From NCBI GenBank assembly GCA_040220235.1, contig JAVJTO010000044.1: a DNA stretch of 64,000 bases; one strand, 5' to 3'. Below, in pieces: positions 4,938-19,865 of this stretch (position 1 is the first letter of the stretch; every line of letters starts with the position of its first letter). The DNA is from Coleofasciculus sp. B1-GNL1-01. Its GTDB lineage: Bacteria; Cyanobacteriota; Cyanobacteriia; Cyanobacteriales; Coleofasciculaceae. The translations under genes were made by a program, and so were the position numbers. The notes below the pieces were generated by a model. It made no database searches, was not told the DNA's origin, and worked only from the letters and a program-made list of their open reading frames with translations.

Positions 4938-7202
4938 CTACTTATTCCGATCTAATTTCAGAATTAAAACGCCTAAGGGTGGCAAGCACAAGTCAATATA
5001 ATAAGACCAGCGAGGATGAGACCATTCCCCTGTCCATCGACCCCCCATATTCCCCATATTGCTACCGCCGTAATCTTCAGCATCGCTGTTCAAGACTTCC
5101 GCATAGAAACCGGGTTCGGGGACACCCACCCAATAGTCGGGATGAGGTTGAGGGGTAAAGTTACAGACGGTGACGATAAAGTCATCCGAGTCTTTTGCTT
5201 TGCGAATAAATGAGACGACGCTATTGTCGGCATCGTTACAGTCAATCCACTCAAACCCTTGATGGGAAAAGTCTTGGCTATAGAGGGCGGGTTCACTTTT
5301 ATATAGGTGATTTAAATCCGCCATAAATCGCTTCAGTTGTTGGTGGGGTTCATGTTGCAACGCGCCCCAATCTAAGTCTGCCCAAGCATTCCACTCATTC
5401 CGTTGTCCAAATTCCATGCCCATAAATAGGGTTTTCTTACCGGGATGGGTGTACATGTAGGCATATAAACAGCGGAGATTGGCAAATTTCTGCCAGTCAT
5501 CTCCTGGCATTTTACTCAATAGGTTGCCTTTTCCGTGGACGACTTCATCATGAGATAGCGCCAGCATAAAGTTTTCACTGAAGGCATACATGATGCTGAA
5601 CGTGACATTATTTTGGTGGTAGGGACGATACAGGGGATCTTTGGCAAAATAATCCAACATATCGTGCATCCAGCCCATATTCCACTTGAAGCTGAAGCCT
5701 AAGCCGCCCAAATAGGTGGGACGAGAGACGAGGGGCCAAGCGGTGGATTCTTCAGCAATGGAGAGGATACCGGGATAATAGCCGAATATCTGATAATTCA
5801 GATAGCGCAAAAAGTCGGCGGCTTCTAGGTTTTCGTTACCCCCATACTGATTCGGTACCCATTCCCCATCTTTGCGATCGTAGTCCAGGTATAACATGGA
5901 CGCCACCGCATCCACGCGAATCCCGTCAATATGATAGCGGTCAAACCAGAACAGGGCATTGGCAACCAAAAAGTTGCGAACTTCATTCCGGGCGTAGTTG
6001 AAGACTAAGGTTCCCCATTCCTTATGTTCCCCTTTGCGGGGATCAGCATGTTCGTAAAGATGCGTACCATCAAAGAAGGCTAACCCGTGAGTATCTTTGG
6101 GAAAATGACCCGGAACCCAATCCACAATCACGCCAATATCATTTTGGTGACATTGGTCGATGAAATACATCAAGTCTTGAGGCGTGCCATACCGGGAGGT
6201 GCAGGTGTAGTATCCGGCAACCTGATACCCCCAAGACCCATCATAAGGGTGTTCGGCAACGGGGAGAAGTTCGACGTGGGTGAATCCCAGTTCTTTGACA
6301 TAAGGAATTAGGCGATCGGCTAATTCCCGATAGGTGAGGAAGCGTCCTTCGGGTTTCTGGGAGACTTTCACCACGGGGCGAGTTTCCCCATCCGGGAATT
6401 CGGGCGGCGTCTCGGCACTCTCATGCAACCATGAACCCAAGTGAACCTCATAAACAGAAATGGGTTGTTCTTGGGGGTCAGTATGGCGACGCCGTTCTAG
6501 CCAGTCTTCGTCGTGCCAAGTGTAGTCTAGGCTATTGACAATTGACGCGGTTTGGGGTCTAATCTCCTGTTCAAAGCCGTAGGGGTCGGATTTGTGATAA
6601 ATATGTCCGACGTGGTTTTTCACTTCATACTTATAGTGTTCTCCGACACCAATTTCCGGGATAAACAGTTGCCAAATCCCGTTCCCCAGTTGGCGCATCT
6701 GATGTTCGCGTCCATCCCAGTTATTGAAATCACCGATAACGGAAACATTACGGGCGTTGGGTGCCCAGACGGCAAAGTGAACCCCTTGGACGCCATTAAA
6801 TTCTGTAGGGTGAGCACCCAATTTTTCGTAAATGCGATGATGATTGCCTTCGGCAAATAGGTGAATATCAAAATCTGTCAAACGCGGTGAACGAAAGGCG
6901 TAGGGGTCATAGATGACTCGTTCATGTTCGCCTTCTTTAATCCGCAGTTGGTAGTTGGCTAATTCCGGTATCTCAATCTCACATTCAAATAAATGAGGAT
7001 GACTGACAGCCTGCATCGGGTATTCTTCCCGTTCCGTGGGACGAATCACCCAAGCGGCGTCGGCTTTCGGCAGGTAAGCCCGCACAACCCAGCTTGTTTT
7101 ACCCTCCCGTTCAACGGGATGAGACCCAAGAATTTCAAAGGGATCATGGTGTCGATTACTCACAATCCGATCGATTTGATCTGGGGAGATGGTTATTGTC
7201 AT
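4938..7202 (-). CDS. glgB: 1,4-alpha-glucan branching enzyme
   Basis: 754 aa; WAPNARNVSV, YEVHLGSW, GSWGYQ, GIRVDAVASMLY, AEESTAW and LSHDEVVHGK motifs. Confidence 0.97.
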   Translation of the reverse strand: MTITISPDQIDRIVSNRHHDPFEILGSHPVEREGKTSWVVRAYLPKADAAWVIRPTEREEYPMQAVSHPHLFECEIEIPELANYQLRIKEGEHERVIYDPYAFRSPRLTDFDIHLFAEGNHHRIYEKLGAHPTEFNGVQGVHFAVWAPNARNVSVIGDFNNWDGREHQMRQLGNGIWQLFIPEIGVGEHYKYEVKNHVGHIYHKSDPYGFEQEIRPQTASIVNSLDYTWHDEDWLERRRHTDPQEQPISVYEVHLGSWLHESAETPPEFPDGETRPVVKVSQKPEGRFLTYRELADRLIPYVKELGFTHVELLPVAEHPYDGSWGYQVAGYYTCTSRYGTPQDLMYFIDQCHQNDIGVIVDWVPGHFPKDTHGLAFFDGTHLYEHADPRKGEHKEWGTLVFNYARNEVRNFLVANALFWFDRYHIDGIRVDAVASMLYLDYDRKDGEWVPNQYGGNENLEAADFLRYLNYQIFGYYPGILSIAEESTAWPLVSRPTYLGGLGFSFKWNMGWMHDMLDYFAKDPLYRPYHQNNVTFSIMYAFSENFMLALSHDEVVHGKGNLLSKMPGDDWQKFANLRCLYAYMYTHPGKKTLFMGMEFGQRNEWNAWADLDWGALQHEPHQQLKRFMADLNHLYKSEPALYSQDFSHQGFEWIDCNDADNSVVSFIRKAKDSDDFIVTVCNFTPQPHPDYWVGVPEPGFYAEVLNSDAEDYGGSNMGNMGGRWTGEWSHPRWSYYIDLCLPPLGVLILKLDRNK

Positions 7203-7401
7203 GGCGTTACCTTGTTTAACTTCCCAGACTTAATAGTAATCAAGATTTCTCCACTGGTACAATTTTGGGGGATTGGGGAAGGTGAGAGAATTATACCAAA
7301 TCCGAGGACAGAAACCCCCCTTATCCCTTGGCGGCTCTTGCCTGTTGCCTGTTACCTGTTGCCTGATAAAATCAGATAAAACACCATTTCCCAGGTCAAC
7401 A

Positions 7402-7749
7402 TTGAAACAACTCGTTGAATTTTCCCTAGACGATGACTCTACGTTCTTAGTCGAGGTAGATGAACCCGAAACGACGGCGGTTGAACGAGTCGCGTTACCC
7501 TCAGGACGTTTAGCCCTCAAAGCCCAACGTTCCTTTGATCAAGCACTAGATACGATTAAGCCTGTCGCCTCTAAAATTATTTCTAAACTAAACGATCTCA
7601 ACACGCCCGCCGATGAAGTGGAAGTCAAATTTGGACTAAAGTTAACCGCTGATGCAGGGGCAGTCTTTACCTCAGTCGGCGGCGAAGTCAGCTATGAAAT
7701 TACATTGAAGTGGAATCAGTCTCAGTCAAGGAAACGCGATGGCAGATAA
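7402..7749 (+). CDS. Trypsin-co-occurring (Trypco1 / CU044_2847-like) small protein
   Basis: LVEF..DD..FLVEVDE and PADEVEVKFGLKLTADAGAV..S.GGE..YEITLKW pattern; overlaps the downstream trypsin gene. TTG start at 7402 is inferred. Confidence 0.75.
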   Translation: MKQLVEFSLDDDSTFLVEVDEPETTAVERVALPSGRLALKAQRSFDQALDTIKPVASKIISKLNDLNTPADEVEVKFGLKLTADAGAVFTSVGGEVSYEITLKWNQSQSRKRDGR

Positions 7750-8605
7750 CTCCGCTTACCTAAATGCCTTTAAAACCGGGATTATTCGCATATCCCACGC
7801 CAATGGAGTTGTGGTTGGGGCAGGGTTTCTGGTATTTCCTAATTATGTGCTAACCTGCGCCCATCTGGTAGCTCAAGCGCTGACAATTCCCCCAAATACT
7901 CCCGATATGCCAACGGGTTTGATTGATCTAGATTTTCCTTTAATTGCACCGGGAAAGAAAATTAAAGCAAGGGTAGAGTTTTGGCAACCCGTGAATCCTG
8001 CGGTAGCTGGAGAAGATATTGCCGGATTAAAGTTGGAGGATAAATGTCCGCCGGGAGTGCAACCTGTGCGATTGGTTACAGCAGACGATGTTTGGCAACA
8101 TTCAGTACGGGTGTTTGGCTTTCCCAGTGGACATCCTGATGGCGTTTGGGCGACAGGGGTACTGCGCGGGGAATTAGGCAATGGATGGATACAAATGGAA
8201 GCGGTTAATGTCCCCGGTTATCGAGTAGAACCGGGCTTTAGTGGTGCGCCCGTGTGGGATGAAACCTTGTCGGGAGTTGTCGGGATGGCGGTGGCGGCGG
8301 AACGACAACGGGATGGGGTTAAGGCAGCGTTTATGATTCCCACAAAGGTGTTGAGTCAAGCTTGGTCGATGCTCGGTCAATTTGTTCACACGGCAATGAA
8401 ACCTAAACCCGCATTGAGTTTAGTTCAGCAAGCAAAAGCTAGAACTCGACAGAAAACTTTGGAAAGTTTAATAGCTGATTATGAAAATACTTATAATCAA
8501 TTGAATTATACATCAAATGCCGCTGAGCGCAACATGATTAAACGACAGTGTGATGTTCTTGAGCAGGAAATGACCGAAGTCGCCAACGTACTTGATGCAT
8601 TATGA
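7739..8605 (+). CDS. Trypsin-like serine protease with C-terminal helical effector-associated (EAD9-like) domain
   Basis: Catalytic triad motifs LTCAH, DIAGL and GFSGAP. The C-terminal ~60 aa resemble the N-terminus of the next ORF. Confidence 0.85.
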   Translation: MADNSAYLNAFKTGIIRISHANGVVVGAGFLVFPNYVLTCAHLVAQALTIPPNTPDMPTGLIDLDFPLIAPGKKIKARVEFWQPVNPAVAGEDIAGLKLEDKCPPGVQPVRLVTADDVWQHSVRVFGFPSGHPDGVWATGVLRGELGNGWIQMEAVNVPGYRVEPGFSGAPVWDETLSGVVGMAVAAERQRDGVKAAFMIPTKVLSQAWSMLGQFVHTAMKPKPALSLVQQAKARTRQKTLESLIADYENTYNQLNYTSNAAERNMIKRQCDVLEQEMTEVANVLDAL

Positions 8606-8728
8606 ATCATGAATTAAAATTTTCTATTCCCTGTATTTCGACCAGCCTGTTGGTAGAGACGTTGCAGGCAACGTCTCTACAATCTAGGAAAAAATGGTTC
8701 TATAATAATGTCAGATTGGGTATGATCA

Positions 8729-9739
8729 ATGACCAATGCCATAAGCACTAAGAAAAAGATGCTTCAGGCTCGGCTTGACCAATTAATAGTGGATTATGAG
8801 AGTCTATATCAGCAATTAAATTACACCCAAAATCAAGCCGATCGCAATCAGCTTAAGCGACAAGCAGAGGATGTATTTCATGAGATGGAAAGGGTGGAAG
8901 CCCAACTGAATCAATGTCAGTCATCTAATACAACTTACAACGACAATTATAAGAACTGGGAAAACCATTTACCTAAGATTAATTATTCTCAAGCCAGTAA
9001 ACTGTTTAATCGCATTTTTGACCACTTTGGCGAAAAAGGGGGCGCTGTCTTTTTCTTACTCCAGAATTGTCATCCCATGGGTGGAAAGTGGTGCATGGAA
9101 AAGATTAAAACTTCTCTCAAGGATAAAGGGGTGTGGAGTCCCCGTGCGGTCGGCTTTGCCGCCTGGGAACAGCCGAATCCCACAGATTTTATCCAGCGCT
9201 TGGGGGCTAGCTTTAACCTGGAAGATAATACCAGTCCGGTAGAAGTCGCGACTCAACGCCTAATCGATAAAATTTATAACTCTTTGCAAATTGACAGCAC
9301 CGTATTTCTGGAGATTCGACTCTTCTCCCTGGATAGCCAATCTGACTTTTTAGCCTGGTTAATTCCTCAATTCTGGATTCCTTTAATCAGCCGCTTACCA
9401 TTAATTCGCCAAGACCTTCCCTTGGTTAAATTTGTTACCGTTATGGTGGTGGAGACGAAAATTCCTCAAACTTGTCGGTCTCCCGCTCTATTTTGTCAAG
9501 GGGGTAAGTTGAGTAGCAAGAAGATTATTGAACTAAAATTAGGCAACTGGACGGAGAAAGAAATCAGAACTTGGTTATATCGATACTCCGGTTTGGCGAC
9601 GCCTAATATAGGGCGGACGCCAAGGGAAATTGAGCAGATGTCTCGTATGGTTTACCAAGTGAGCCAAGGTAGACCGATTGATGTTTATAGTTACCTTATG
9701 AACGAGTTGACTCGGGCTTTCGGAGTTGGAGGGAATTGA
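8729..9739 (+). CDS. EAD9-like + inactive STAND (iSTAND) domain protein
   Basis: N-terminal helical domain shared with the upstream protease. The rest has an NTPase-like layout with degenerate Walker motifs, and the gene lies directly upstream of a MoxR gene. Confidence 0.65.
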   Translation: MTNAISTKKKMLQARLDQLIVDYESLYQQLNYTQNQADRNQLKRQAEDVFHEMERVEAQLNQCQSSNTTYNDNYKNWENHLPKINYSQASKLFNRIFDHFGEKGGAVFFLLQNCHPMGGKWCMEKIKTSLKDKGVWSPRAVGFAAWEQPNPTDFIQRLGASFNLEDNTSPVEVATQRLIDKIYNSLQIDSTVFLEIRLFSLDSQSDFLAWLIPQFWIPLISRLPLIRQDLPLVKFVTVMVVETKIPQTCRSPALFCQGGKLSSKKIIELKLGNWTEKEIRTWLYRYSGLATPNIGRTPREIEQMSRMVYQVSQGRPIDVYSYLMNELTRAFGVGGN

Positions 9740-9743
9740 TGTC

Positions 9744-10676
9744 ATGAATTCGACCACTGAATATAAGTTTCAAGGGAATCCTAACGCTCGACCGAAATCA
9801 GCTCATCCGGATTCTCCCCAAACCCCTGAACCGTATATTGCCCCGGATGAATTGATTCAGGCGGTAAATTTGGCAATTTATTTGCGGCGACCGTTATTAT
9901 TAGAAGGAGAAGCCGGGTGTGGGAAAACGCGATTGGCTCGTGCGGTAGCCTATGAATTAGGATTACCATTTTATCGTTGGGATGTGCGTTCGACGAGTAA
10001 AGCTCAAGAGGGTCTTTATCACTATGATGCTATTTTACGTTTGCATGATGTCCAGATTCAGCAGTTAGAGACGCTGGACAAGAGTGACCAAAGCCGCAAT
10101 CCCAGTAATCCCAAATACTATCGCAAATTGGGCGCATTGGGGAAAGCGTTTATTCTGAAATCCTGTCCGGCGGTGGTTTTAATTGATGAAATTGATAAGG
10201 CAGATATTGATTTTCCCAATGATTTGCTTGCGGTTTTAGATGAGCCGTGGGAATTTACGATTCCGGAGACAAGGGAAAAAGTTCAGGCTGATTATCCGCC
10301 TATTGTGATGATTACCAGTAATAAGGAAAAGGGGAATTTACCTGCACCGTTTTTACGCCGTTGTTTATATTATTTTGTTGAATTTCCCAGTCAAGAGCGC
10401 TTAAAAGAAATTGTCGCGATTCACTACCAGATGCAGCAAATGACGGCTCCGGCGAGGGAATTAGTGGAGACGGCAACAGAACGATTTATTCAAGTGCGTC
10501 AGGAGGGAGGGTTGTTCAAGCTTCCCGGAACGAGTGAATTTTTAGATTGGTTGAAAGCACTGCAAACCTTTGAAAAGACGCCCTATAAGGCGGAAAAATT
10601 AGCCAAGGAGAAGCGGCTTCCTTATCGGGAATTGTTATTTAAGCTGCGGGCAGATTGGCAAAACTATGCTGTGTAG
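9744..10676 (+). CDS. MoxR family AAA+ ATPase
   Basis: RPLLLEGEAGCGKT (Walker A), VLIDEIDKADIDFPNDLL (Walker B) and ITSNKEKGNLPAPFLRRC. ATG at 9744 follows a GGAGG. Confidence 0.92.
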   Translation: MNSTTEYKFQGNPNARPKSAHPDSPQTPEPYIAPDELIQAVNLAIYLRRPLLLEGEAGCGKTRLARAVAYELGLPFYRWDVRSTSKAQEGLYHYDAILRLHDVQIQQLETLDKSDQSRNPSNPKYYRKLGALGKAFILKSCPAVVLIDEIDKADIDFPNDLLAVLDEPWEFTIPETREKVQADYPPIVMITSNKEKGNLPAPFLRRCLYYFVEFPSQERLKEIVAIHYQMQQMTAPARELVETATERFIQVRQEGGLFKLPGTSEFLDWLKALQTFEKTPYKAEKLAKEKRLPYRELLFKLRADWQNYAV

Positions 10677-10710
10677 GGTCATTTATCTTATGTCATGTAT
10701 ACGCAAAATC

Positions 10711-10983
10711 GTAGGGTGCGTTAGCGTTCGCGCAGCGTTCCCGAAGGGTAGCGTAACGCACCATTTTTCTAAAAACGATAGGTAAAAATCAACCCTGTAG
10801 GGGCGACCCGTTGCATCAATTAACAACACCAATCCACTCAATAGGCTTGGGTCGCCCTCTCTTCTCGCAATGGGTAGCGAGCAAGATGCAAAGCCTGCGG
10901 CATGGCTTCGCTTAACGCACTACAATGAAACGGGTAAACTCACCCCGACAATTGACGACAGACGTGCCATGGTACGTCTCTAC
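10711..10983. repeat. Cluster of four different GTAG-REP elements between moxR and vWA
   Basis: GTAGGGTGCGTTA..TAACGCACC; GTAGGGGCGACCC..GGGTCGCCC; GTAGCGAGC..GCACTAC; AGACGTGCCATGGTACGTCTCTAC. Confidence 0.8.
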
Positions 10984-10988
10984 ATGAT

Positions 10989-12053
10989 GTGAAAAACGAT
11001 ACCATTCAGCCCATCCTATCTCGCCTATTTAACCGCTTACGCCAAAGCGGATTCAACTTGGGTGTGGGTGAATATCGGGCAGCGCTAGAGGCAATTGAAG
11101 GGGGCTATGGGTCAAGTAGCTTAGAAGAACTCGAACGGGTGTTAACATTACTCTGGTGTCATTCCCGCGCCGAACAAAGCCAGTTTCAGTTCATTTGGGA
11201 ATCGGTAATCGCAGACACCTCAACGGTGGAACCGAAACCACCACGCCGCACCTCTAAACCGGAACCCTCACCAGAACCCCAAGATAAACCGCTAGCCGCT
11301 CCCTCACCTCAACCTGTAGAATCCGTGCAACCCCAACCCGCTCTAGAGTTAGCGCCGTTGCCGATTCGCGCTCCCTTTACCCCGGTTGAAACGGAAGATA
11401 CCCCCCAACTACAAACCGATAGACCCATTTCCCGCCGTGCGATGGTGTATAGTTGGCGTTATCTGCGCCGTCCGATTCTAGATGGTCCAGAGGATGTTGT
11501 GGATGAGCGGGCGACAGTGGAAACCGTGGCGCGTCAGGGATTTTTTCTCACCCCGGTTTATCGGCGTCGGGAACGGAATGCGGCTCATTTGCTGTTGTTA
11601 ATCGACCAAGATGGGTCAATGACACCCTTCCATCGCTTTACCCGTGACTTGGTGGAAACGGCGCAATATGAAAGTTCGATTGGGCAAGTGGATGTTAGCT
11701 ATTTTCACAATATTCCGGCAAAAAGCGTCTATCATGACCCCTATTTGACCCAACCTGTCCTGTTGGAGCGGGTGTTAGCCACCTGTGATAATAACACCAG
11801 TGTTTTCATCGTCAGCGATGCAGGGGCGGCGCGGGGATATCGGCGGTTAGAGCGAATTCGAGCCACGACGGAGGTATTATTTCAAATTAAGCAACAGACC
11901 AATCTGATAGCCTGGTTAAATCCCATGCCCCAAGAGCGTTGGGGGAGTACCTCAGCTCAACTCATTGCCCATCTTGTGCCAATGTATCCCATGGATAACG
12001 ATGGATTAAGTCATGCGATCGATATTGTACGCGGACAGCCGTTGTCACCGTAG
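10989..12053 (+). CDS. vWA domain protein (CoxE-like partner of MoxR)
   Basis: LIDQDGSM MIDAS-like motif, SDAGAARG and WLNPMP..RW, with a Pro-rich linker; follows moxR. Confidence 0.85.
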   Translation: MKNDTIQPILSRLFNRLRQSGFNLGVGEYRAALEAIEGGYGSSSLEELERVLTLLWCHSRAEQSQFQFIWESVIADTSTVEPKPPRRTSKPEPSPEPQDKPLAAPSPQPVESVQPQPALELAPLPIRAPFTPVETEDTPQLQTDRPISRRAMVYSWRYLRRPILDGPEDVVDERATVETVARQGFFLTPVYRRRERNAAHLLLLIDQDGSMTPFHRFTRDLVETAQYESSIGQVDVSYFHNIPAKSVYHDPYLTQPVLLERVLATCDNNTSVFIVSDAGAARGYRRLERIRATTEVLFQIKQQTNLIAWLNPMPQERWGSTSAQLIAHLVPMYPMDNDGLSHAIDIVRGQPLSP

Positions 12054-12171
12054 GGGCGCACCGACGTGCGCCCTTTACCGACGTGCGCCCTTTGCTGACG
12101 TGCGCCCTTGTACCCATTACCATGCCGCTATGGTGTGTTACCGTTTGCGAGCCAGTAGGATAAGGAAAACA

Positions 12172-12381
12172 ATGATTAAATCAGGAACGGGTGACTCCTT
12201 GGATTATGACCCAACTAAAGAAAACGTTCACGCAGCAACTGATCCAGATAAATGTAGGGACATGGAACGCAGAAATGGGTGGAGATTAAAGAAAATCAAG
12301 CCAACACGCGATCCGACATTGAAAGTTGATTGCGTATTCTATGGTGAACAAACAACATTTGAAGATGAACGCTATGACTAA
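12172..12381 (+). CDS. Small hypothetical protein (module gene A, copy 1), 69 aa
   Basis: AAGGA RBS before ATG 12172; clearly similar to 59089..59310. Confidence 0.75.
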   Translation: MIKSGTGDSLDYDPTKENVHAATDPDKCRDMERRNGWRLKKIKPTRDPTLKVDCVFYGEQTTFEDERYD

Positions 12382-12760
12382 AGTTAAAGCTGAAACCTGG
12401 ATTGTTTACAAAACCGAGACAATGAGCGCTCCCGGATGGGAAAATCGTCAACTGCTACCAGCCGGATCGATGACCGACATAATCAGCGAAGAATGGGATA
12501 GTTCCGGTCATCTCCCCAAAATAGGCGATCGCATCCGCGAGTATACAAATTTAGACAATCCAGAACAAGGCGGAATTACCCATAGTCGGGATGGAGACTG
12601 GGTTGTCACCACGATTCACCAGTTTTCTTCCCCCGACACTCCTACTCATATTGTTGTTTGTTACTGTTCTTACCAACCCATCACACCTAACTGGGTCAAA
12701 CTCAAGCGCGGGAAACCGGTAAATGACATGCTCGAAACGGTTAGCACTGGGGTTGAGTGA
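12374..12760 (+). CDS. Hypothetical protein (module gene B, copy 1), 128 aa
   Basis: ATG overlaps the gene A stop (ATGACTAA); clearly similar to 58699..59085. Confidence 0.8.
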   Translation: MTKVKAETWIVYKTETMSAPGWENRQLLPAGSMTDIISEEWDSSGHLPKIGDRIREYTNLDNPEQGGITHSRDGDWVVTTIHQFSSPDTPTHIVVCYCSYQPITPNWVKLKRGKPVNDMLETVSTGVE

Positions 12761-12860
12761 ACTATCACAAGAGAGCATGTCAAGGAAAGCAGATAATGTT
12801 TAGGCGTTGGGTGATTCACCTAAGAAGGCTGACGCTGCTTACGTCGCGATCGCGCTATAT

Positions 12861-12990
12861 AGTTGTAGGTTGGGTTGACGCTTGTTACCCAACAGAATCT
12901 AGGGCTAAAGCCCTGACTACGAACGAGTTGTAGGTTGGGTTGACGCTTGTTACCCAACGGAATTTAGGGCTAAAGCCCTGACTACGAACG
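12861..12990. repeat. 2 x 65-bp tandem repeat, each unit containing two oppositely oriented GTAG-REP palindromes (BIME-like)
   Basis: agttgtaggttgggttgacgcttgttacccaac(a/g)gaat(c/t)tagggctaaagccctgactacgaacg occurs at 12861 and 12926 with 2 mismatches. Confidence 0.9.
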
Positions 12991-12993
12991 AAC

Positions 12994-14583
12994 ATGAATA
13001 CCGCCACTGTAGCTAACCGAGATAAGGAAATTGCCAGACAACGGGTGAACCAATTTGTCCGGCGATTTGAGGAATCTTATCGGCTTTTGGCGTATCATGC
13101 GGCACTTCCTTTGGTGCTAACCCCGGAACTGCTCAATTATCTGCGGAATCAATTTCTGCGCGGACAAGTGCCTTGGCTGGCGGAAGTGGATTTGTTGCTG
13201 TCGGATTTGTGTAGTCCGGTGGGGTACGAACTCTATGCTATGGATACCGCCGTTCGTGCCTATTTGCTGGAGGAAATGCATAATGATGCGGCACTCTCCA
13301 GCCAACGGATGCAGGAGGTGGCTCGATTATTATTGGGGTATGTTCGCCATCTGGCACAGACGAATCCGTTTATTAGTAAACAGGAATTAGAGGCGCAACA
13401 GTGGGCGGCAATGGTGTACCTTGATAACCAGCGAGAAAATGCTGTGCGTCAGATTGTGCAAGCGTTTCAAGAGAGTCGGGCAATCGGGGGAAGTCGCTGG
13501 CAAACTGAAATGGCGCGTTTGTCCCGAATTACGCAGGAACTTGCCCCTCAATTAAGGGCTTACCCAAATCTGTTGGAGTATGCTGAGTTAATTACTCGCT
13601 TTGTGGCTGAACCTGAATCAGTGAATCCCGAAGCTGGGACGCATTCCTACTCAGTTCTAGGGGAAAATCTGGACATCCCGGAGGAATGGATTGCTGAAGG
13701 TACGGGTTCATTTCCTCCCTTGCAGGTGTTTGAGTTTGAGGTGGTGACGGTTGATAAACAGGGTAATATCATTGACAAAACTCAGGAGCAAGGGCAATAT
13801 TTTCGGGAAGATTTGGGCAATGGTGTCACCTTGGATATGGTGGCGATTCCAGGAGGGTCATTTCTGATGGGTTCTCCCGATACGGAAGCAGGACACAGAG
13901 ATAGTGAAAGTCCCCAGCATTCGGTAACGGTTCAACCCTTTTTCATGGGGAAATACCCGGTAACTCAGGCACAATGGCAGGCGATTGCTAATCTACCTCA
14001 AGTCGATAAAGAACTTGACCCTGACCCGTCTAATTTTAAAGGATCAGATCGACCCGTTGAGCAAGTATCGTGGTATGATTGTGTAGAGTTTTGTGCGCGG
14101 TTATCGCAGTACACAGGACGAGACTACCGACTTCCTAGTGAAGCCGAGTGGGAATATGCCTGTCGTGCGGGAACAACAACGCCGTTTCATTTTGGTGAAA
14201 CGATTACTACGGATTTAGCCAATTACGACGGCAATTATACTTATGGTGAAGGTCATAAGGGTAAGTATCTTAAAAAGACTACCCCGGTCGGGAGTTTTCA
14301 GGTAGCGAACCCCTTTGGCTTATTTGATCTGCATGGAAATGTGTGGGAATGGTGTGCTGACCATTGGCATGATAGTTATGAAGGTGCGCCGCCGGATGGT
14401 CAAGCTTGGTTATTGGATGAGGATGAGGATGAAAATGATAATCATTCTCGGCTGTTGCGCGGTGGTTCGTGGATCCTCAATCCCAGGTACTGTCGTTGTG
14501 CTAGTCGCGACAGGGATACCCCTGTCATCAGGTTCAACTACTTCGGGTTTCGGGTTGTCTGTGGTGCGGCGTGGACTCCTTAG
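12994..14583 (+). CDS. FGE-sulfatase/SUMF1 (CLec-fold) domain protein; probable DGR target
   Basis: [39 protein letters not shown] and RGGSW...GFRVVC motifs; N-terminal HAALPLVLTPELL domain of the kind found after vWA genes. Confidence 0.92.
   Translation: MNTATVANRDKEIARQRVNQFVRRFEESYRLLAYHAALPLVLTPELLNYLRNQFLRGQVPWLAEVDLLLSDLCSPVGYELYAMDTAVRAYLLEEMHNDAALSSQRMQEVARLLLGYVRHLAQTNPFISKQELEAQQWAAMVYLDNQRENAVRQIVQAFQESRAIGGSRWQTEMARLSRITQELAPQLRAYPNLLEYAELITRFVAEPESVNPEAGTHSYSVLGENLDIPEEWIAEGTGSFPPLQVFEFEVVTVDKQGNIIDKTQEQGQYFREDLGNGVTLDMVAIPGGSFLMGSPDTEAGHRDSESPQHSVTVQPFFMGKYPVTQAQWQAIANLPQVDKELDPDPSNFKGSDRPVEQVSWYDCVEFCARLSQYTGRDYRLPSEAEWEYACRAGTTTPFHFGETITTDLANYDGNYTYGEGHKGKYLKKTTPVGSFQVANPFGLFDLHGNVWEWCADHWHDSYEGAPPDGQAWLLDEDEDENDNHSRLLRGGSWILNPRYCRCASRDRDTPVIRFNYFGFRVVCGAAWTP
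14452..14570 (+). other. Putative DGR variable region (VR)
   Basis: Codons between GGSW and GFRV (ATC CTC AAT, TAC, AGT, GAC, GAT ACC, GTC ATC, TTC AAC TAC TTC) end in C/T and are derivable from AAC/AAT by changes at A positions. Confidence 0.75.
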
Positions 14584-14634
14584 CCCTTGACACTTTTGCC
14601 CTTTTCCCCTCTGTCCTTTATTCTTTTCCCTTTT

Positions 14635-14664
14635 CCCGCCTGCGGCGGGTCGATTTTTTTTTTT
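14635..14664. promoter_or_regulatory. GC hairpin CCCGCC-TGC-GGCGGG plus T-tract (DGR target cruciform and/or intrinsic terminator)
   Basis: Perfect 6-bp stem with a 3-nt loop (GCA on the - strand), 51 nt after the target stop and preceded by a pyrimidine-rich tract. Confidence 0.65.
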
Positions 14665-14739
14665 GAGATTTATACGCAAGGGTGGCAATAATCGTCTGCC
14701 AGAATACCTCCTGTAACTTTTTAATGTACGATTGAGTCT

Positions 14740-14875
14740 GTGAGCGATTTACCGATTATCCAGAAAACCTACGATTTAATTCGCTGGTACATCCCGATTC
14801 TTAACCGCCTGCCGCGAAATCATAAATTTCTGTTAGGTACTCGGGTCATTAGCAGATTGTATGATCTCTTAGACA
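14740..14875 (+). pseudogene. avd: Truncated DGR accessory variability determinant Avd
   Basis: [44 protein letters not shown] matches the N-terminus of cyanobacterial Avd. Similarity stops after ~45 aa and runs into repeat DNA. Confidence 0.8.
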
Positions 14876-14940
14876 GACCGAGCATAAATTATAGCACGGT
14901 AATTTGTAAGGGTATGGCAATGCTGTACCCCTACCATTGG

Positions 14941-15156
14941 TAATACCAAACCGCCTTTGATATCATGTCCGGTCAAACACCCCTAATAAAAACGCCTGAA
15001 ACCCCTGTTATTGCAGCATTGCAATTATGGGCAATCGTTAGGACATGATATGAAACCCCCTTTTTGCCTTGGCGACTGGAAGTCGCAGCTACACAAGCAA
15101 AGTCCGCCTGCGCGGACTAGATTATAAAGGGGGCGGCTAACCCGGATTTGGTATTA
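14941..15156. mobile_element. MITE-like element with a nested second MITE (14961..15050)
   Basis: Outer ends TAATACCAAA...TTTGGTATTA; inner ends TATCATGTCC...GGACATGATA; a related inverted copy starts at 17905. Confidence 0.6.
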
Positions 15157-15435
15157 GATATCGGGGTATTTTCTCGCGTTATGAAGAACACGGAGGATAT
15201 GTACCTGATTGTTTTTAACTCGGTAGACCACAAAATAGGGTGTCTTTGAGATAACCAACTCCCTTGTCCCTTCAACGCGCCCGGTTCTTCCCATATATGG
15301 GAATTTTGCTAACTGCTCAACCGCTGCTTGTATTTTTAAAACAGTATTTGTTGCAGCGTCTGGGTTATCTTCGCAAATGTAGGCATGAAGCTGCTCAAGG
15401 TTGCGTAGTGCTTTGCGTAACCATCTAACTTTCAT
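15154..15435 (-). CDS. RelE/ParE family toxin
   Basis: MKVRWLRKALRNL...FPYMGRTGRVEGTRELVI...YRVK..VHILRVLH; overlaps its antitoxin. Confidence 0.9.
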   Translation of the reverse strand: MKVRWLRKALRNLEQLHAYICEDNPDAATNTVLKIQAAVEQLAKFPYMGRTGRVEGTRELVISKTPYFVVYRVKNNQVHILRVLHNARKYPDI

Positions 15436-15667
15436 GGGTCAACCGAGCAAAGACGGCGGTTACCTCGTCTTCACTGGCAAAATCCCCAGCATCAGCTTCA
15501 GCGATACCCTGCTGAATCTCTTTGAGTTGCCACTGATGCATTTCCAGGTAAGTATTAATTGCCTGATTCAATACGTAGGTTAAATTACGATCCATACCAG
15601 CAGCAATAGCATCCAGTGCAGCTCTTTTATCAGGATCAAGTCGAAAGGTTACATTTTCCTTGCTCAT
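15425..15667 (-). CDS. CopG/RHH antitoxin
   Basis: MSKENVTFRLD...LDAIAAGMDRNLTYVLNQAI...IQQGIAEADAGDFAS. The real start is ATG 15667, inside the longer track ORF. Confidence 0.85.
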   Translation of the reverse strand: MSKENVTFRLDPDKRAALDAIAAGMDRNLTYVLNQAINTYLEMHQWQLKEIQQGIAEADAGDFASEDEVTAVFARLTHES

Positions 15668-15883: not shown

Positions 15884-16366
15884 TCACTCTTGAACGGTAG
15901 AAGTCACCGCATCCGCATCAAAAACTACCTCGAACTGTGCATCAGGTATCCACTTTGCCAGAAAGCGCTGGTGATTTTGGGCTTCTGTGCGACTGTAGAA
16001 GCGAGCAACCGTATAATGTTGAGCATTCGGCAAAAGCCTCACCAGTGTCCAAGGATAATACTGTTGACTCCAAAAGCTGTGGTTAGACTTGGGTGATGGT
16101 TCGGCTGTGCGCCCACATCCCCGATGCTCCAAAATAGAACGAATCATCGCTAAAAGTCGCTCTCGCTGTGGCGTTCCATCATTGGGTAACAAACTCCACT
16201 CGTTGATTGGTGTGGGTAGCCAAGTCAAGCGATAGGTCATCGAATCTTTGCGAATATGCCAAGACAGGCGGCGTGGCTGTTTGCGACAGTTGAACCCATC
16301 GGCGCGAAAAGACGCAACAATCCTGTCGCCTTCAGCTTGCAGGCGAAGCCATTGAGAATGTTTCAT
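15884..16366 (-). CDS. Hypothetical protein (C-terminal PWxxVRLLPN..VARF..R.EA..H..FL..FEVVFD domain)
   Basis: Start at MKHSQW is inferred. The C-terminal motif resembles small cyanobacterial proteins I recall from mobile regions, divergent from XRE genes. Confidence 0.6.
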   Translation of the reverse strand: MKHSQWLRLQAEGDRIVASFRADGFNCRKQPRRLSWHIRKDSMTYRLTWLPTPINEWSLLPNDGTPQRERLLAMIRSILEHRGCGRTAEPSPKSNHSFWSQQYYPWTLVRLLPNAQHYTVARFYSRTEAQNHQRFLAKWIPDAQFEVVFDADAVTSTVQE

Positions 16367-16435
16367 TGTTATGATGATTGTGATTGTTTTTTGAGAAAGG
16401 GCGATCAGGCACAAAACATAAGCGATCGCCCCTTA

Positions 16436-16614
16436 TCTATGGAAGGCTTTCTCAAAACTTACACACGAGGCGATTGAAATCGCAGCTACACATAACATAA
16501 GTTTGTATAGCTCCATGATGGAACATGAGAGCAACGTGCTTCGTGTGAGAAACTACACCATAGAGAGACAGGGAAACAAGAAGTATCGGGACTTCTAATA
16601 GCGTTTCCCCCGTC
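16436..16614 (-). ncRNA. Candidate structured RNA / 5' leader (copy 1)
   Basis: Nested hairpin 16567..16614 shows compensatory changes relative to copy 2. A second long-range pairing is possible between 16541-16563 and 16437-16468. Confidence 0.45.
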
Positions 16615-16628
16615 AGTTTTTTGCTGTT

Positions 16629-16649
16629 AATGCACCACTGTGGTGCATT
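16629..16649. promoter_or_regulatory. Perfect palindrome AATGCACCAC-T-GTGGTGCATT, putative operator of XRE-1
   Basis: Lies immediately upstream of the XRE-1 start, in the divergent promoter region. Confidence 0.55.
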
Positions 16650-16656
16650 GCTAAGT

Positions 16657-16905
16657 ATGATAATAGACGATCAGAATCCAGATTTCAACCCCAATGTGCC
16701 AACTCTCAAACAAGTTCGTGAACGCTTAGGTATGACCCAAGAGCAGTTTGCAGATGCACTAGGATTATCGCGAAACACGATTAATCGGTACGAACGCGGT
16801 ATACACCAGCGCATTGCTCTTTCTGTGGGTCAGATCAAACGACTTGTCGAACTCATGAAGCAAGCAGGATTATCAATAGAAGACTTACCCGACGATATCG
16901 AATGA
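16657..16905 (+). CDS. XRE-family HTH regulator (paralog 1)
   Basis: LKQVRERLGMTQEQFADALGLSRNTINRYERG; start is inferred. Confidence 0.85.
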   Translation: MIIDDQNPDFNPNVPTLKQVRERLGMTQEQFADALGLSRNTINRYERGIHQRIALSVGQIKRLVELMKQAGLSIEDLPDDIE

Positions 16906-16970
16906 GTTAGCATCAGCTAGAGGCTTGAACTATAACTCGTTGTCTTTCCCATCACCTCCTAGTCTTGGCG

Positions 16971-17043
16971 TCGTGTGAGAAACTTACCCATAGACAGATA
17001 GGGAAACAGGAAGTATGGGGACTTCCCCAAACGTTTCCCCATC
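16971..17043 (-). ncRNA. Candidate structured RNA (copy 2, partial)
   Basis: Same nested hairpin and TTTCTCACACGA motif as copy 1, offset by 430 bp. Confidence 0.45.
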
Positions 17044-17092
17044 CTTTTTGTTTTGTTGTCCAATTAGGACAAGTTGTCCTTTGCTGATTAAA

Positions 17093-17335
17093 ATGGTAGA
17101 CGATACAGATTGGAATAGCAACCCTCACTTGCCAACTCTTAGACAAGTTCGTGAACGCCTGAATATGACTCAGGAAGAATTTGCGCGTGAACTGGGGACA
17201 ACAACCAGAACCATTGGACGTCACGAACGAGGGGAACACAAGCTGAGGCTGACTTTAGGGCAAATCAAACGTTTGAAAGAACTTCTCGAACAAGCAGGAA
17301 TGTCAATCGACGACTTACCCGACGATATAGATTGA
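17093..17335 (+). CDS. XRE-family HTH regulator (paralog 2)
   Basis: LRQVRERLNMTQEEFARELGTTTRTIGRHERG; shares the C-terminal LPDDI(D/E) with paralog 1. Confidence 0.85.
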   Translation: MVDDTDWNSNPHLPTLRQVRERLNMTQEEFARELGTTTRTIGRHERGEHKLRLTLGQIKRLKELLEQAGMSIDDLPDDID

Positions 17336-17468
17336 GACAATATCAGTTCATCCGGTGTCTCAAGACTAGGCAGAAACAGGGATAGAGCAAGACTGAGAGA
17401 CGGTATGCGATCGCGTGTTTTGGGGTGGAGAATGCGATCGCACATCCAGCCTTCCCTCGTTTAAGTGT

Positions 17469-17494
17469 GACAGATAGTCCGTAGACTGATCGTC
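17469..17494 (+). promoter_or_regulatory. C-box-like operator (GACAGATAGTC-CGTA-GACTGATCGTC)
   Basis: Two GAC..GTC half-sites separated by CGTA, ~24 nt upstream of a C-protein-like ATG. Confidence 0.7.
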
Positions 17495-17517
17495 AACTTT
17501 AGATGATCATAATTTTT

Positions 17518-17766
17518 ATGAAAGACTCTAAAGTAAAAATCTTGAAAGCTTTGGGATTATTGATTAGACAGCACAGGGCATCTATGGGAATTTCTCAGGA
17601 AGAGTTGGGATTACGTTGCCATCTTGATCGAACATATATATCAGGATTGGAGCGTGGTGTGAGAAATCCTTCTCTGACTGCACTTGTTACTCTTGCCAAC
17701 GGTTTGAACATGACCGTCGCTCAACTTTTAGAAAATATAGAAGTAGAAGCAAGGAATATCCAGTGA
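17518..17766 (+). CDS. Controller (C)-protein-like XRE regulator
   Basis: GISQEELGLRCHLDRTYISGLERGVRNPSL is the typical restriction-modification C-protein HTH pattern. Confidence 0.8.
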   Translation: MKDSKVKILKALGLLIRQHRASMGISQEELGLRCHLDRTYISGLERGVRNPSLTALVTLANGLNMTVAQLLENIEVEARNIQ

Positions 17767-17904
17767 ATCCAGAGTCAGCGGAGAACTTCAGAGCAAAGTT
17801 AAAAGTATGTAGGGTGGGCAAGAATGATAAATAGGGAAAGGTTTATATTATCATTTATTGCTTTTGCCCACCTCACGGGAACCGAAAATTATCCCCCGTC
17901 ATTT

Positions 17905-18006: not shown

Positions 18007-18461
18007 CTTTATTTATCTCATATTGGCAGAAGTTGATAGATGAATAAGTTTTTTTAAGATTCTCAATACATCACCTAAACCATTTTTGCGATTGCCAATT
18101 CCAAACAAATCAGACATGGCATACATAGGGGTAGCGGCTTTGACTAATTTGAGGAATAGAAAACTCCCCTCAGGCAGAGAGAAGTCTAGAGAAAATCTGC
18201 TGTACAATGTGCCTATGATTCAACAGGCGATCGCACTCCTTAATCGGCTTCTGTGGGCGCACGTCGGTTATGGGTGTCAAGTTAAGCTACAGCCGCCACG
18301 CCTATGCCTGTTTCCCAAGGGTGACAGAGGAGGGCAATAGGGCAGACGTAGCCTCATTCTCAGGTTTGAGAAGGGAATGAATCGCCGCCAAATCATTGCA
18401 TTTGTTTGCCTGGTAATTTTAAGCTTACAATAAACCCAGAAAGCCGTTCTATGAGCAGAAT

Positions 18462-18962: not shown

Positions 18963-19333
18963 ATGATTCAACAGGCGATCGCACTCCTCAATCAGGTTGG
19001 CTTAGAACTTACGGCAGAAGAGATGCGCGGTTATCGCAGTACACAGGACGAGACTACCGACTTCCTAGTGAAGCGGAGTGGGAATATGCCTGTCGTGCTC
19101 GAACAACAAAACCGTTTCATTTTGGCGAAACGATTACTACGGATTTAGCCAATTACAACGGCAACTCTACTTTTGGTGAAGGTCATAAGGGTGAGTATCG
19201 TGAACAGACTACCCCAGTTGGGAGTTTTCAGGTAGCGAACGCCTTTGGCTTATTCGATATGCATGGAAATGTGTGGGAATGGTGTGCTGATCATTGGCAT
19301 GATAGTTATGAAGGTGCGGCGTGGACTCCTTAG
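18963..19333 (+). pseudogene. Decayed second FGE/CLec target gene: N-terminal stub fused out of frame to a copy of 14094..14388 + 14569..14583
   Basis: Near-identical to the 3' part of 12994..14583 (offset 4930) but lacking 180 bp. The 3' UTR is also duplicated to ~19380. Confidence 0.85.
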
Positions 19334-19865
19334 CCCTTGACACTTTTGCCCTTTTGCTCTCTGCCCTTTATTGTTTTCCTTAAAACTGATAGTTTAGCAT
19401 ACGCTTGTCCGGAAGACCCAAAGTTAGTCGTCACGCATAAGTCAAAAGGAACAAGTCAAAAGATGGAAGATTTAATATCTAAGTGTTATTGGTTTTGGAG
19501 AATTGCAGCGGATGATTCGATTACTGGGCTGGTGTTCTAGTTCCTCCGCGTACCTCTGCGCCACCCTCTGCGTCCTCTGCGTTAAAAAATATAATTCTGA
19601 TACCAACAGATTTGATATCACCTAATGTGTGGATGAGCAAAACCTAGGAAAAGGGCGGGTTTTGTTGAAAAGTTATCAGTGATATGTTTATTGAATCCCT
19701 AAACCCGCCCCTACAGTATTTCTAAACTAATAAACCCTGGCAATACTTCCTCCACTGAGTCTGGCAATTCCAGATGACTACTTTAGCAATTAAGCTGGCT
19801 TCTCGGATACCATCTTCTCCACCAAAATGCCAAACCGCTTATTGTTTACACTCCCCCACAACTAA

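Follow-up and report, generated by a model that had tools for sequence, protein, structure and literature searches.

We analysed a 64,000-nucleotide stretch of contig JAVJTO010000044.1 from Coleofasciculus sp. B1-GNL1-01 (hereafter the window), in which Pfam and NCBIfam profile searches placed seven features on the + strand between positions 7402 and 14877. They follow one another in the order Trypco1, trypsin-EAD9, EAD9-iSTAND, MoxR-like AAA+ ATPase, CoxE-type vWA protein, a 529-aa FGE-sulfatase (FGS/CLec) protein and a 46-codon Avd stub. A preliminary description had proposed such a co-oriented run, and both the run and its domain assignments were borne out by the scans, in agreement with Kaur 2020 (PMC7159879) and Dore 2024 (PMC10907252). 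The six ORFs are open and co-oriented, with intact catalytic and ATPase motifs. These features and the further elements discussed below are as follows.

7402..7749, + strand: Trypco1 gene (PF19493, E 5e-25; NF041216, E 6e-21)
7739..8605, + strand: trypsin-like serine protease with C-terminal EAD9 (Trypsin_2, E 1e-13; EAD9, E 5.6e-16)
8729..9739, + strand: EAD9 plus inactive STAND NTPase module (EAD9, E 4e-20; iSTAND PF19995, E 1.4e-13)
9726..10676, + strand: MoxR-like AAA+ ATPase (AAA, E 4.8e-8; AAA_5, E 3.2e-7; both above cut-off)
10989..12053, + strand: CoxE-type vWA protein, 354 aa (VWA_CoxE, E 4.7e-10; 39.7 bits against a cut-off of 26.4)
12054..12993, + strand: 940-bp insertion between the vWA and X-FGS halves (absent in G001, present in G003)
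12994..14583, + strand: X-FGS gene, 529 aa, separate from the vWA gene
12994..13668, + strand: X module, residues 1-225 of the FGS protein (conserved helical module with a winged-helix start)
13834..14583, + strand: FGE-sulfatase / C-type-lectin-fold domain, residues 281-522, plus stop codon (PF03781, E 2.3e-59)
14476..14547, + strand: variable region (VR), codons 495-518, putative former DGR target site (orthologue variation, VR/TR homology)
14635..14665, + strand: GC hairpin with T-run, terminator-like, 50 nt past the X-FGS stop
14740..14877, + strand: Avd stub, first 46 codons (NF033474 positions 1-43 of 104, E 3.4e-13)
19024..19379, + strand: FGS C-terminal fragment without VR (180-bp deletion between GGTGCG repeats)

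The Trypco1 ORF (7273-7749) is open from 7273; its predicted start is the TTG at 7402, where the conserved part of the protein begins, and homology to the sister species begins at 7362. It overlaps the trypsin gene by 11 nt. The latter encodes a predicted protease with Trypsin_2 at residues 27-183 and EAD9 at residues 227-287, in which the His-Asp-Ser triad occurs in order as TCAH (H42), EDIAG (D93) and GFSGAP (S168). In a weak alignment with granzyme M (E 0.04), H42 and D93 fall on catalytic residues of that enzyme. Compared with the EAD9 of the iSTAND protein in this locus, the effector EAD9 is identical at 24 of 49 positions (45% in a separate comparison), no closer than to the VMAP EAD9 of the sister species (25/58).

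That other EAD9 copy forms residues 4-63 of the iSTAND protein. The P-loop behind it is degenerate, the Walker A lysine not being conserved among 71 homologues, and no Walker B motif of the form hhhhD[DE] was found in these sequences. The protein ends about 20 residues past a conserved S-x-G-x-P motif; both stops in the G001 orthologue fall past this natural end, and we therefore rejected the idea that it is a pseudogene. The AF2 model is confident (pLDDT 94.7); in fold comparison, the part from residue 69 to 336 resembled the AAA+ base and lid found in Cdc6/Orc1 (Z 14.7) as well as in MalT, Dark and NLRs. The next protein is an ATPase with intact Walker A (GEAGCGKT, 61-68) and Walker B (LIDEID, 152-157) motifs. 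It scored below the cut-off of the specific MoxR models (bpMoxR, 17.8 bits; MadB, 92 of the 475 bits needed) and matched short stretches of midasin among PDB sequences, and its assignment to the MoxR clade is based on gene neighbourhood; two paralogues in the genome, each beside other iSTAND/vWA genes, are 51-55% identical to it. The vWA protein carries a MIDAS-like motif (DQDGS, 206-210) and no cargo domain of its own.

The cargo instead lies on the separate X-FGS gene. In G022, from another cyanobacterial family, a single 913-aa vWA-X-FGS protein aligns to the vWA gene over residues 6-367 and to the X-FGS gene over residues 364-910, so that the two genes here are the halves of what the G022 family makes as one fused protein. 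Since X-FGS is orthologous to the C-terminal part of that fusion, the vWA-cargo arrangement is present at this locus only in split form. This detached half had been overlooked in the preliminary description, as had the 940-bp insertion between the two halves. The region of the insertion contains dispersed repeats (12040-12110 and 12840-13000; 30-62 copies in the genome), and the insertion itself holds a small ORF (12326-12760, 144 aa) of no family and gave no match in Pfam, NCBIfam or PADLOC.

For the X module, a Pfam search at E up to 10 returned only noise, a Foldseek search against the PDB gave no match at E up to 0.001, and the ESM Atlas offered only unnamed cyanobacterial clusters. Its homologues, found in 544 + 79 proteins, are always followed by varied cargo: FGS, CHAT, caspase, TIR, GUN4, sigma region 4, or iSTAND or STAND NTPases. 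Two more iSTAND systems in the genome have the module behind vWA, and the arrangement in which X heads a gene split from vWA is common to the relatives and to most of the X-bearing proteins. In the AF2 model (pLDDT 92.9), residues 28-83 form three helices and a beta-hairpin. The top VIA-align matches of the module are winged-helix/arm regions (MalT 246-397, Z 10.2; plant NLRs, 8.5; a STAND-TPR protein, 8.2), although its fold matches, at Z 6-10, fall in a range that VIA-align calls common for helical proteins. Six solved chains occur in the top-50 lists of both X and iSTAND, and in these the X match starts near the end of the iSTAND match.

2qby_A: iSTAND match 17-267, X match 275-389
8bob_D (MalT): iSTAND match 12-235, X match 246-397
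8y6p_Q: iSTAND match 118-336, X match 346-579
6j5t_G: iSTAND match 20-378, X match 362-537
7tjf_D: iSTAND match 46-353, X match 373-529
7tjh_I: iSTAND match 53-348, X match 399-512

The models thus suggest that X may be the winged-helix/arm part missing from the truncated iSTAND protein. In some proteins (P0024, P0025, P0026, P0103) X itself precedes an iSTAND or STAND domain, an order that is not the simple split of one STAND gene.

Variation between orthologues is concentrated near the C-terminus of the FGS domain. Across the 24 codons of the VR, three orthologues differ at 12/24 first and 12/24 second positions (50%, 50% and 33% for codon positions 1, 2 and 3), whereas in the X module of the same three species only 7%, 5% and 15% of the columns vary. 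The VR stretch is homologous to the VR/TR pairs of the intact DGRs in G017 and G022 and aligns with their adenine-specific differences; the adenine-specific test at this locus is limited to the comparison of orthologues, as no TR was found for direct comparison. Gene conversion among FGS paralogues found no support as the source of the differences, since across nine genomes of the genus no other VR exceeds 85% identity to it. The VR therefore seems, from its pattern of substitutions and its homology, to carry the scar of past DGR diversification.

The remaining DGR is a relic, and its mutator was not found in the assembly of this genome. The Avd ORF continues to 14943 in unrelated sequence after its 46 codons, which share 70% identity with the first 46 residues of the intact G022 Avd (the bAvd match, E 6e-6, was below its cut-off), and a profile search found no full-length Avd in this genome. 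A four-helix-bundle gene on contig C101 was rejected as an Avd acting in trans (25.6 bits against a cut-off of 80; it lies beside cmr4). No TR was detected in the 8.66-Mb assembly by blastn at word size 7, an unassembled copy being possible given its 172 contigs; with the VR region as query, blastn found only other VRs (contigs C100 and C55) and the local FGS fragment at 19024-19379, which was rejected as a TR because it is a gene fragment without the VR stretch. No DGR-type RT was found in the genome: it has eight RVT_1 matches, three pieces scanned with NCBIfam were group II or Drt-like, and the DGR RTs of G022 and G024 as queries yielded nothing above 28% identity. The G022 RT also found no DGR RT in nine genomes of the genus, where the best match had 34% identity and 79 bits; in G005, a 345-aa RT-like frame is 34% identical to the G022 DGR RT, and no VR of this type is present there. 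Intact DGR counterparts exist in G017 and G022. Avd was above cut-off in 18 of 81 sampled genomes of the order and in none of the three other genomes of the family in that sample, while G017, of the same family and outside the sample, has an intact Avd and RT. The same avd truncation occurs in G001 and G003, making three species with the stub arrangement. The preliminary description had called the sensor DGR-hypermutated and adaptive-immunity-like. With avd reduced to 46 codons and no TR or DGR-type RT found, these labels are not supported as they stand: the VR retains its apparent scar, but no machinery for present mutation was found.

The genes are conserved as a unit: the set recurs in the same order in G001 and G003, congeneric species whose proteins are 84-98% identical to those here, and is therefore not a chance run of ORFs. 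MoxR/vWA and the X module are 96-98% identical to the sister species, with changes mostly at third positions. EAD9-iSTAND, MoxR, vWA (357 aa) and X-FGS (535 aa) also stand in this order in G017 and G013, two other genera, where a TIR-EAD9 gene takes the place of Trypco1 and trypsin-EAD9. The backbone is thus conserved across genera, with the EAD9-tagged effector swapped between trypsin and TIR. Within G017 and G013, effector and scaffold EAD9 are identical at 43/53 and 45/53 positions.

The surroundings have changed more. In G001 and G003 a VMAP system with EAD9 lies directly downstream of the iSTAND locus; here it has been deleted, a loss also missing from the preliminary description. Positions 18225-19024 of the window are 98% identical to G003 DNA that runs from just upstream into the vWA-FGS gene of its VMAP system, and the fragment at 19024-19379 is the remnant of the deleted neighbouring VMAP-type system. 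Another VMAP system of this genome lies on contig C97. The upstream flank is rearranged relative to the sister species, and dispersed repeats occur in every spacer of the locus. Toxin-antitoxin genes and other conflict systems cluster around it. The hairpin at 14635 is the only strong terminator-like site on the + strand within 6900-15300 and is kept 3' of the VRs in G001, on contig C100 and in G017. In a metatranscriptome of a relative (X1; 90-99% alike; Logan contigs), five of the genes appeared on short contigs at depth 2.4-4 and the neighbouring glycogen genes on long contigs at depth 233-391, while in X2-X4 (runs of unrecorded kind) both regions had similar depth (in X2 about 60-74 vs 100-115), figures to be read in the light that contigs cannot reveal transcripts, strand or level and that RNA libraries may contain DNA.

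Taken together, the locus belongs among the MoxR-vWA ternary conflict systems of the iSTAND class, which Kaur 2020 (PMC7159879) described and Dore 2024 (PMC10907252) tied to DGR-diversified lectin targets; the kind is therefore known, and the class named in the preliminary description (a MoxR-vWA ternary system whose effector is a trypsin, with an FGS/CLec protein beside DGR remains) was correct. PADLOC, which has no model for iSTAND systems, gave no system-level match at the locus and only weak protease and AAA matches. As in the iSTAND class (vWA-MoxR subsystem 2) of Kaur 2020, an inactive STAND that begins with an EAD serves as third component, the adjoining effector bears another EAD copy, MoxR lacks VMAP-type extensions, the vWA is of CoxE type, the cargo is FGS (the commonest), Trypco1 accompanies trypsin, and the host is a multicellular cyanobacterium; unlike in that class, the cargo is on a separate X-headed gene rather than fused to vWA, the DGR is lost and 940 bp are inserted between the halves. 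As in the targets described by Dore 2024 (cyanobacterial RT clade 5E), the VR lies at the FGS/CLec C-terminus, beside MoxR, vWA, adaptor and peptidase/TIR genes and with avd directly downstream, but TR, RT and full Avd were not found here or in the genus. With the VMAP ternary systems (vWA-MoxR subsystem 1) the locus has in common the MoxR-vWA core, EAD9, the Trypco1/trypsin effector and the FGS cargo, but their third component is VMAP-M/VMAP-C where this locus has iSTAND. What is new here is the DGR relic, the split vWA/FGS, the X module, the TIR/trypsin swap and the VMAP deletion.

We consider it somewhat favoured that this is an intact iSTAND operon in which the FGS protein senses, the MoxR-vWA pair and iSTAND transmit, and the EAD9-docked trypsin responds, with the diversifying retroelement not found in the assembly. 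The lectin-fold FGS protein would be the likely ligand sensor, and the signal would run from it through MoxR/vWA to the protease, a direction that Dore 2024 proposed. Hairpin docking between the two EAD9 copies may join the protease to the iSTAND scaffold, as Kaur 2020 proposed, while X would provide the winged-helix/arm that the truncated iSTAND lacks, so that scaffold and sensor would combine into one NLR-like unit. Trypco1 could restrain or partner the protease, and the outcome of an invasion might be proteolytic damage to the cell itself or the activation of a target. Our literature search found no bench experiment on any iSTAND-type ternary system. The only experimental support that it found for a sensor-MoxR-vWA logic comes from the actinobacterial Esr pathway, in which, according to a bioRxiv preprint (10.64898/2026.09.08.750141), a MoxR-vWA pathway with a variable sensor is required for the response to threat. 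Esr of oral Actinobacteria resembles the present locus in that a variable sensor domain triggers a defensive output by way of a conserved MoxR-vWA pair; it differs in its beta-propeller sensor and kinase/FHA and Esx secretion output, and in lacking iSTAND, EAD and protease.

The fold matches invite a further, tentative idea, to which we give a minor share of the probability: iSTAND systems could be dismantled NLR-like receptors, with iSTAND as NBD and lid, X (heading the sensor or cargo protein, or behind vWA in fused forms) as winged-helix/arm and MoxR-vWA as the switch in place of the dead NTPase. In this genus the hypervariable loop of the sensor would have outlived its retroelement, and a once adaptive receptor would now be germline-fixed. 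STAND/NLR receptors (MalT, Apaf-1/Dark/CED-4, plant NLRs, Avs) share the predicted NBD and lid folds, a winged-helix and arm followed by a variable ligand-binding domain, and an N-terminal adaptor that recruits the effector; this likeness is at the fold level only (Z 6-15, identity about 10%), and here the NTPase is dead and the parts lie on two polypeptides, with an active MoxR ATPase and vWA encoded between them.

What has been proposed in print for the class runs the other way: Kaur 2020 (PMC7159879) and a 2026 BREX paper (PMC12839542) have iSTAND/VMAP sense and FGS act as effector. Applied here, iSTAND with its EAD9 would sense, MoxR-vWA would set an ATP-dependent threshold, FGS would bind and block invader molecules and the protease would process or release components. 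The rapid evolution of iSTAND (88% identical within the genus but 27-28% when genera of one family are compared, where MoxR has 67-68%) fits this assignment, as does the presence of X at the head of CHAT, caspase and TIR effectors in other proteins, which means that the cargo position is not specific to sensors. Yet FGS is already a separate polypeptide, so that proteolytic release from vWA would be unnecessary; the sole targeted hypervariation lies in the ligand-binding loop of the lectin, as expected of a receptor; and a lectin fold without a catalytic partner makes a weak effector. We regard this arrangement as rather unlikely, though a serious contender. Decay is less probable again. A remnant that no longer works, having lost its mutator and VMAP neighbour, would account for the truncated avd and the RT and TR that were not found, for the deleted VMAP system with its VR-less FGS fragment, for the repeats in each spacer and the insertion parting vWA from X-FGS, and for the rearranged upstream flank. 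Moreover, in G016 the Trypco1/trypsin-EAD9 pair directly adjoins an EAD9-VMAP system, so that the protease here may have belonged to the deleted system and be its orphan. A decayed locus would nevertheless hardly be expected to keep six open ORFs with intact motifs, the near-identity to the sister species described above, or the truncated-avd arrangement in three species.

We give very little credence to the idea that the locus serves a filamentous mat former for signalling directed at itself or for programmed cell death, for instance in the recognition of kin or surface glycans, rather than against invaders. Multicellular bacteria are enriched for the class (PMC7159879, Table 1), lectin-fold sensors could bind self glycans and a frozen VR would suit a fixed ligand, but conflict systems are typically marked by DGR diversification, here in the past, and by effector swapping, and toxin-antitoxin genes and other conflict systems surround the locus.

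This compact and intact six-gene copy offers a workable entry point to which end of such systems senses and which acts. Natural comparisons are provided by TIR and trypsin on the same adaptor, by fused and split vWA/cargo, and by DGRs that are present or lost. With many distinct VRs and no DGR RT found in nine genomes, the genus presents a clean case for following a receptor repertoire after loss of its mutator. More than 600 proteins carry the X module ahead of widely differing cargo, and the module bears no family name; if it truly completes a truncated STAND, the coupling of cargo to scaffold would be explained throughout the class.

Seven features in one orientation were located on the + strand between 7402 and 14877 by ORF reading and by Pfam and NCBIfam domain calls, which, with the motifs in place, bore out the co-oriented run of Trypco, trypsin, iSTAND, MoxR, vWA, FGE-sulfatase and avd fragment given in the preliminary description:

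7402-7749, +, Trypco1 (ORF open from 7273)
7739-8605, +, trypsin-like protease with a C-terminal EAD9 adaptor domain
8729-9739, +, EAD9-iSTAND protein
9726-10676, +, AAA+ ATPase of the AAA_5/MoxR kind
10989-12053, +, CoxE-type vWA protein, 354 aa
12994-14583, +, FGS (FGE-sulfatase, C-type-lectin fold) protein, 529 aa, with the FGE-sulfatase domain at residues 281-522
14740-14877, +, codons 1-46 of a DGR avd gene

As read in the sequences, the protease has TCAH (H42), EDIAG (D93) and GFSGAP (S168) all present, and the ATPase has a Walker A (GEAGCGKT) and a Walker B (LIDEID) motif; the P-loop of the iSTAND protein is degenerate, the lysine of its MGGKW varying in an alignment of 71 sequences. 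There is an overlap of 11 nt between the Trypco1 and protease genes and of 14 nt between the iSTAND and MoxR ORFs. The + strand of 6900-15300 has a single strong terminator-like hairpin, at 14635, 3' of the FGS gene. A putative promoter-like site was seen upstream of Trypco1 (7345-7372), a kind of match that alone is no evidence of function. Every operon spacer also holds short dispersed repeats (8630-8690, 10790-10930, 12040-12110, 12840-13000 and 14944-15149; about 30 to 170 copies of each genome-wide). The repeat at 14944-15149 is polymorphic, because it is missing in X2-X4, sequencing runs of unrecorded kind, where a joint skips 206 bases.

An identical gene set and order was found in two species of the same genus (G001 and G003), with proteins 84-98% identical, and the closest named proteins are from Coleofasciculus. 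DNA homology to these species begins at 7362. The synteny break lies at 7203-7362: the upstream flank common to G001 and G003 sits on another contig of the strain's genome (C65:517-3406), and glgB is the neighbour in the window. The backbone of EAD9-iSTAND, MoxR, vWA (357 aa) and an FGS protein (535-550 aa) headed by the same module (X, residues 1-225 of the FGS protein) was kept in two other genera of the family (G017 and G013), where a TIR-EAD9 protein stands in place of Trypco1 and trypsin-EAD9. Within these two genomes, effector EAD9 and scaffold EAD9 are identical at 43 of 53 and 45 of 53 residues, and both are far less like the EAD9 copies from other genomes; for the window pair of trypsin and iSTAND EAD9 the count is 24 of 49. 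The close within-genome pairs are in keeping with the idea of homotypic adaptors in Kaur 2020 (PMC7159879), on iSTAND/VMAP MoxR-vWA ternary systems.

Because both align to one 913-aa protein of a genome from another family (G022; residues 6-367 to the vWA gene, 364-910 to the FGS gene), the vWA and FGS genes are, judged from sequence, two halves of one component. The split is common to G001, G003, G013 and G017. In the window, the spacer between the halves measures 940 bp and is mostly an insertion absent from G001, with dispersed repeats and a 144-aa ORF without a family. Two further copies of this ORF (12326-12760, +) lie elsewhere on the contig (window 58762-59292, -, and C44:42219-42551; 37-41% identity) and form with it a small family without a match in Pfam, NCBIfam or PADLOC; the G003 copy at the same site is 98.6% identical, above the flanking genes.

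Module X, which hardly varies between the three species of the genus, had no match in Pfam or NCBIfam. It is also found 3' of the vWA gene in the strain's two other iSTAND systems (contigs C151 and C82), with different C-terminal parts. The C151 system (L023:5590-10577) reads HTH-iSTAND, MoxR, vWA, X (213 aa) and an AAA_35 ORF, and the C82 system (L024:5123-11138) EAD8-nucleoside phosphorylase, EAD8-iSTAND, MoxR, vWA and X with a 586-aa cargo without a Pfam match. A search with X returned 544 proteins of 290-926 aa and 79 longer ones, purple sulfur bacteria being among the hosts; in all ten proteins scanned, the Pfam-recognised domains lie beyond about residue 230. As compiled from these ten and from the precomputed domains of the other matches, the cargo after X is FGS, CHAT, caspase, TIR, GUN4, sigma region 4, an iSTAND domain or STAND NTPases; a precomputed VWA_CoxE domain occurs in only 3 of the 79 longer proteins. 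X may be the "N-terminal extension without predicted domains" mentioned in Dore 2024 (PMC10907252), on DGR-diversified lectin targets.

In the AlphaFold2 model of X (30 sequences, mean pLDDT 92.9) a long helix comes first, residues 28-83 form three helices and a beta-hairpin, and a helical bundle follows. Foldseek gave no match at E up to 0.001. With an exhaustive aligner, residues 246-397 of MalT came top (Z 10.2), followed by two plant NLRs, matched in their winged-helix regions (Z 8.5), and a STAND-TPR protein (Z 8.2), with the winged helices of Dark, CED-4, Apaf-1, ZAR1 and Cdc6/Orc further down the list; these Z values are within the range that the tool calls common for helical proteins. 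In the model of the iSTAND protein (71 sequences, pLDDT 94.7), residues 69-336 match the AAA+ base and lid of Cdc6/Orc1 (Z 14.7), TnsC, MalT 12-235, Dark 118-336 and NLRs, and the protein ends about 20 residues beyond a conserved S-x-G-x-P motif. Six chains are common to both top-50 lists, and since the X-matched stretch starts near the end of the iSTAND-matched stretch in each of them, the models suggest that X is the winged helix and arm missing from the truncated iSTAND. Two caveats bear on reading this as a split STAND: X stands in front of an iSTAND or STAND domain in some proteins, and it carries effector domains in others. This complementarity of folds is not mentioned in the searched passages of Kaur 2020 or, on iSTAND, in those of a 2026 BREX paper (PMC12839542).

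Two relatives have an intact counterpart of the DGR. Downstream of the X-FGS gene of G017 come Avd, an RT of 352 aa and a template repeat (TR), which differs from the variable region (VR) at adenines; downstream of the fused gene of G022 come Avd, an RT of 356 aa and a 133-nt TR with 87% identity to the VR. For the window locus, three of the four defining DGR features were not found. Its Avd match ends after codon 46, with the same truncation in G001 and G003. In the whole assembly of the strain (172 contigs, 100% complete by marker genes) no TR was found, the matches being only paralogue VRs on C100 and C55 and a local fragment, and no DGR RT was found either: RVT_1 matched eight times, NCBIfam placed the three scanned pieces as group II or Drt-like, and the RTs of G022 and G024 are at most 28% identical to the RT genes of the strain. 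Across nine genomes of the genus, the G022 RT as query found no DGR RT (nothing above 34% identity or 79 bits), and Avd was above the cut-off in none of five. The VR paralogue on C100 lies in a gene for a 610-aa protein kinase-FGS protein (C100:14530-16362; L026:8530-10362), with a VR 80-83% identical to that of the window, the same downstream hairpin, no adjoining DGR genes, and orthologues in four other genomes of the genus.

Among three orthologues, VR codons 495-518 differ at 12 of 24 first, 12 of 24 second and 8 of 24 third positions; the corresponding values for X are 7%, 5% and 15%. No VR more than 85% identical to that of the window was found in the genus. The earlier reading of a DGR-hypermutated CLec sensor thus stands as regards past diversification, by VR codon positions 1 and 2, and is not supported as regards a current DGR target: with avd truncated and no TR or RT found, yet with this VR divergence, the sensor loop is probably a scar of hypermutation. 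Because the avd truncation is common to the window, G001 and G003, we infer that the VR was diversified in trans by a later-lost cassette or that the differences are ancestral polymorphism.

A second loss adjoins the operon. In G001 and G003 a VMAP system and an array of short FGS genes lie just downstream of the iSTAND system. The array of G003 (C51:348820-357154, L038) has at least four intact FGS-only genes (278-289 aa), with a different VR in each, and FGS fragments, 3' of the 894-aa FGS gene of the VMAP system; RT was not found in the G003 genome. The VMAP system is absent from the window, where homology to G003 breaks off at 15839 and resumes at 17791; 18225-19024 has 98% identity to the stretch of G003 that runs into its vWA-FGS gene, and 19024-19379 is a C-terminal FGS fragment from which 180 bp with the VR were removed between two GGTGCG repeats. 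In another genome, G016, the Trypco1/trypsin-EAD9 pair directly adjoins an EAD9-VMAP, MoxR, FGS system. Because the VMAP system is deleted here and the trypsin pair lies beside VMAP in G016, the window protease may have worked with two scaffolds, or it may derive from the lost system.

In place of the EAD9-VMAP and MoxR genes of the sister species stands 15884-17790, with a tandem duplication of a unit of about 430 bp bearing an Xre-type HTH_3 gene (16538-17346, +; 73-82% identity) and a third HTH_3 ORF (17503-17766, +). A ParE toxin gene (15154-15435, -; PF05016, E 1.8e-20) overlaps a small upstream ORF without a family match (15425-15667, -), likely its antitoxin; G001 and G003 have this pair between their iSTAND and VMAP systems (94-97% DNA identity). 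A second ParE-like gene (18647-18950, +) lies in two frames (18647-18760 and 18768-18950), and is 93-100% identical to the intact 100-aa ParE of G001; a frameshift has probably made it a pseudogene. A TnpB-like ORF is found at 23828-25216 (+; OrfB_IS605, E 1e-7; Cas12f1-like TNB domain, E 1.4e-4). Elsewhere in the strain's genome, C97:441-9610 (L025) encodes a separate VMAP-type ternary system with a CHAT peptidase, VMAP-M12/VMAP-C, MoxR and a 1030-aa protein with a C-terminal FGS domain.

We propose that a ligand would be bound by the FGS loop and that this sensor would be coupled through X to both the vWA protein and the iSTAND scaffold, with MoxR providing an ATP-driven conformational switch beyond the reach of the dead NTPase. 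The EAD9 hairpin of the scaffold (two long helices in the model, residues 2-66) would then recruit the EAD9 of the protease, which Trypco1 may partner or restrain until recruitment. The direction of signalling in these steps is that of Dore 2024, and, with FGS on a polypeptide of its own, it is a better fit than "cleave and release". The reverse assignment, with iSTAND as the sensor and FGS as the effector, is that of Kaur 2020 and is a serious rival to FGS as sensor.

The window locus belongs to a known class, as predicted from its genes, and agrees with the iSTAND ternary class in the features compared, its ATPase being placed in the MoxR clade by gene neighbourhood, except that its cargo is not fused to the vWA. 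Three twists make it useful: its mutator is lost, one component is split, with an unnamed module at the head of one half, and the effector is swapped.
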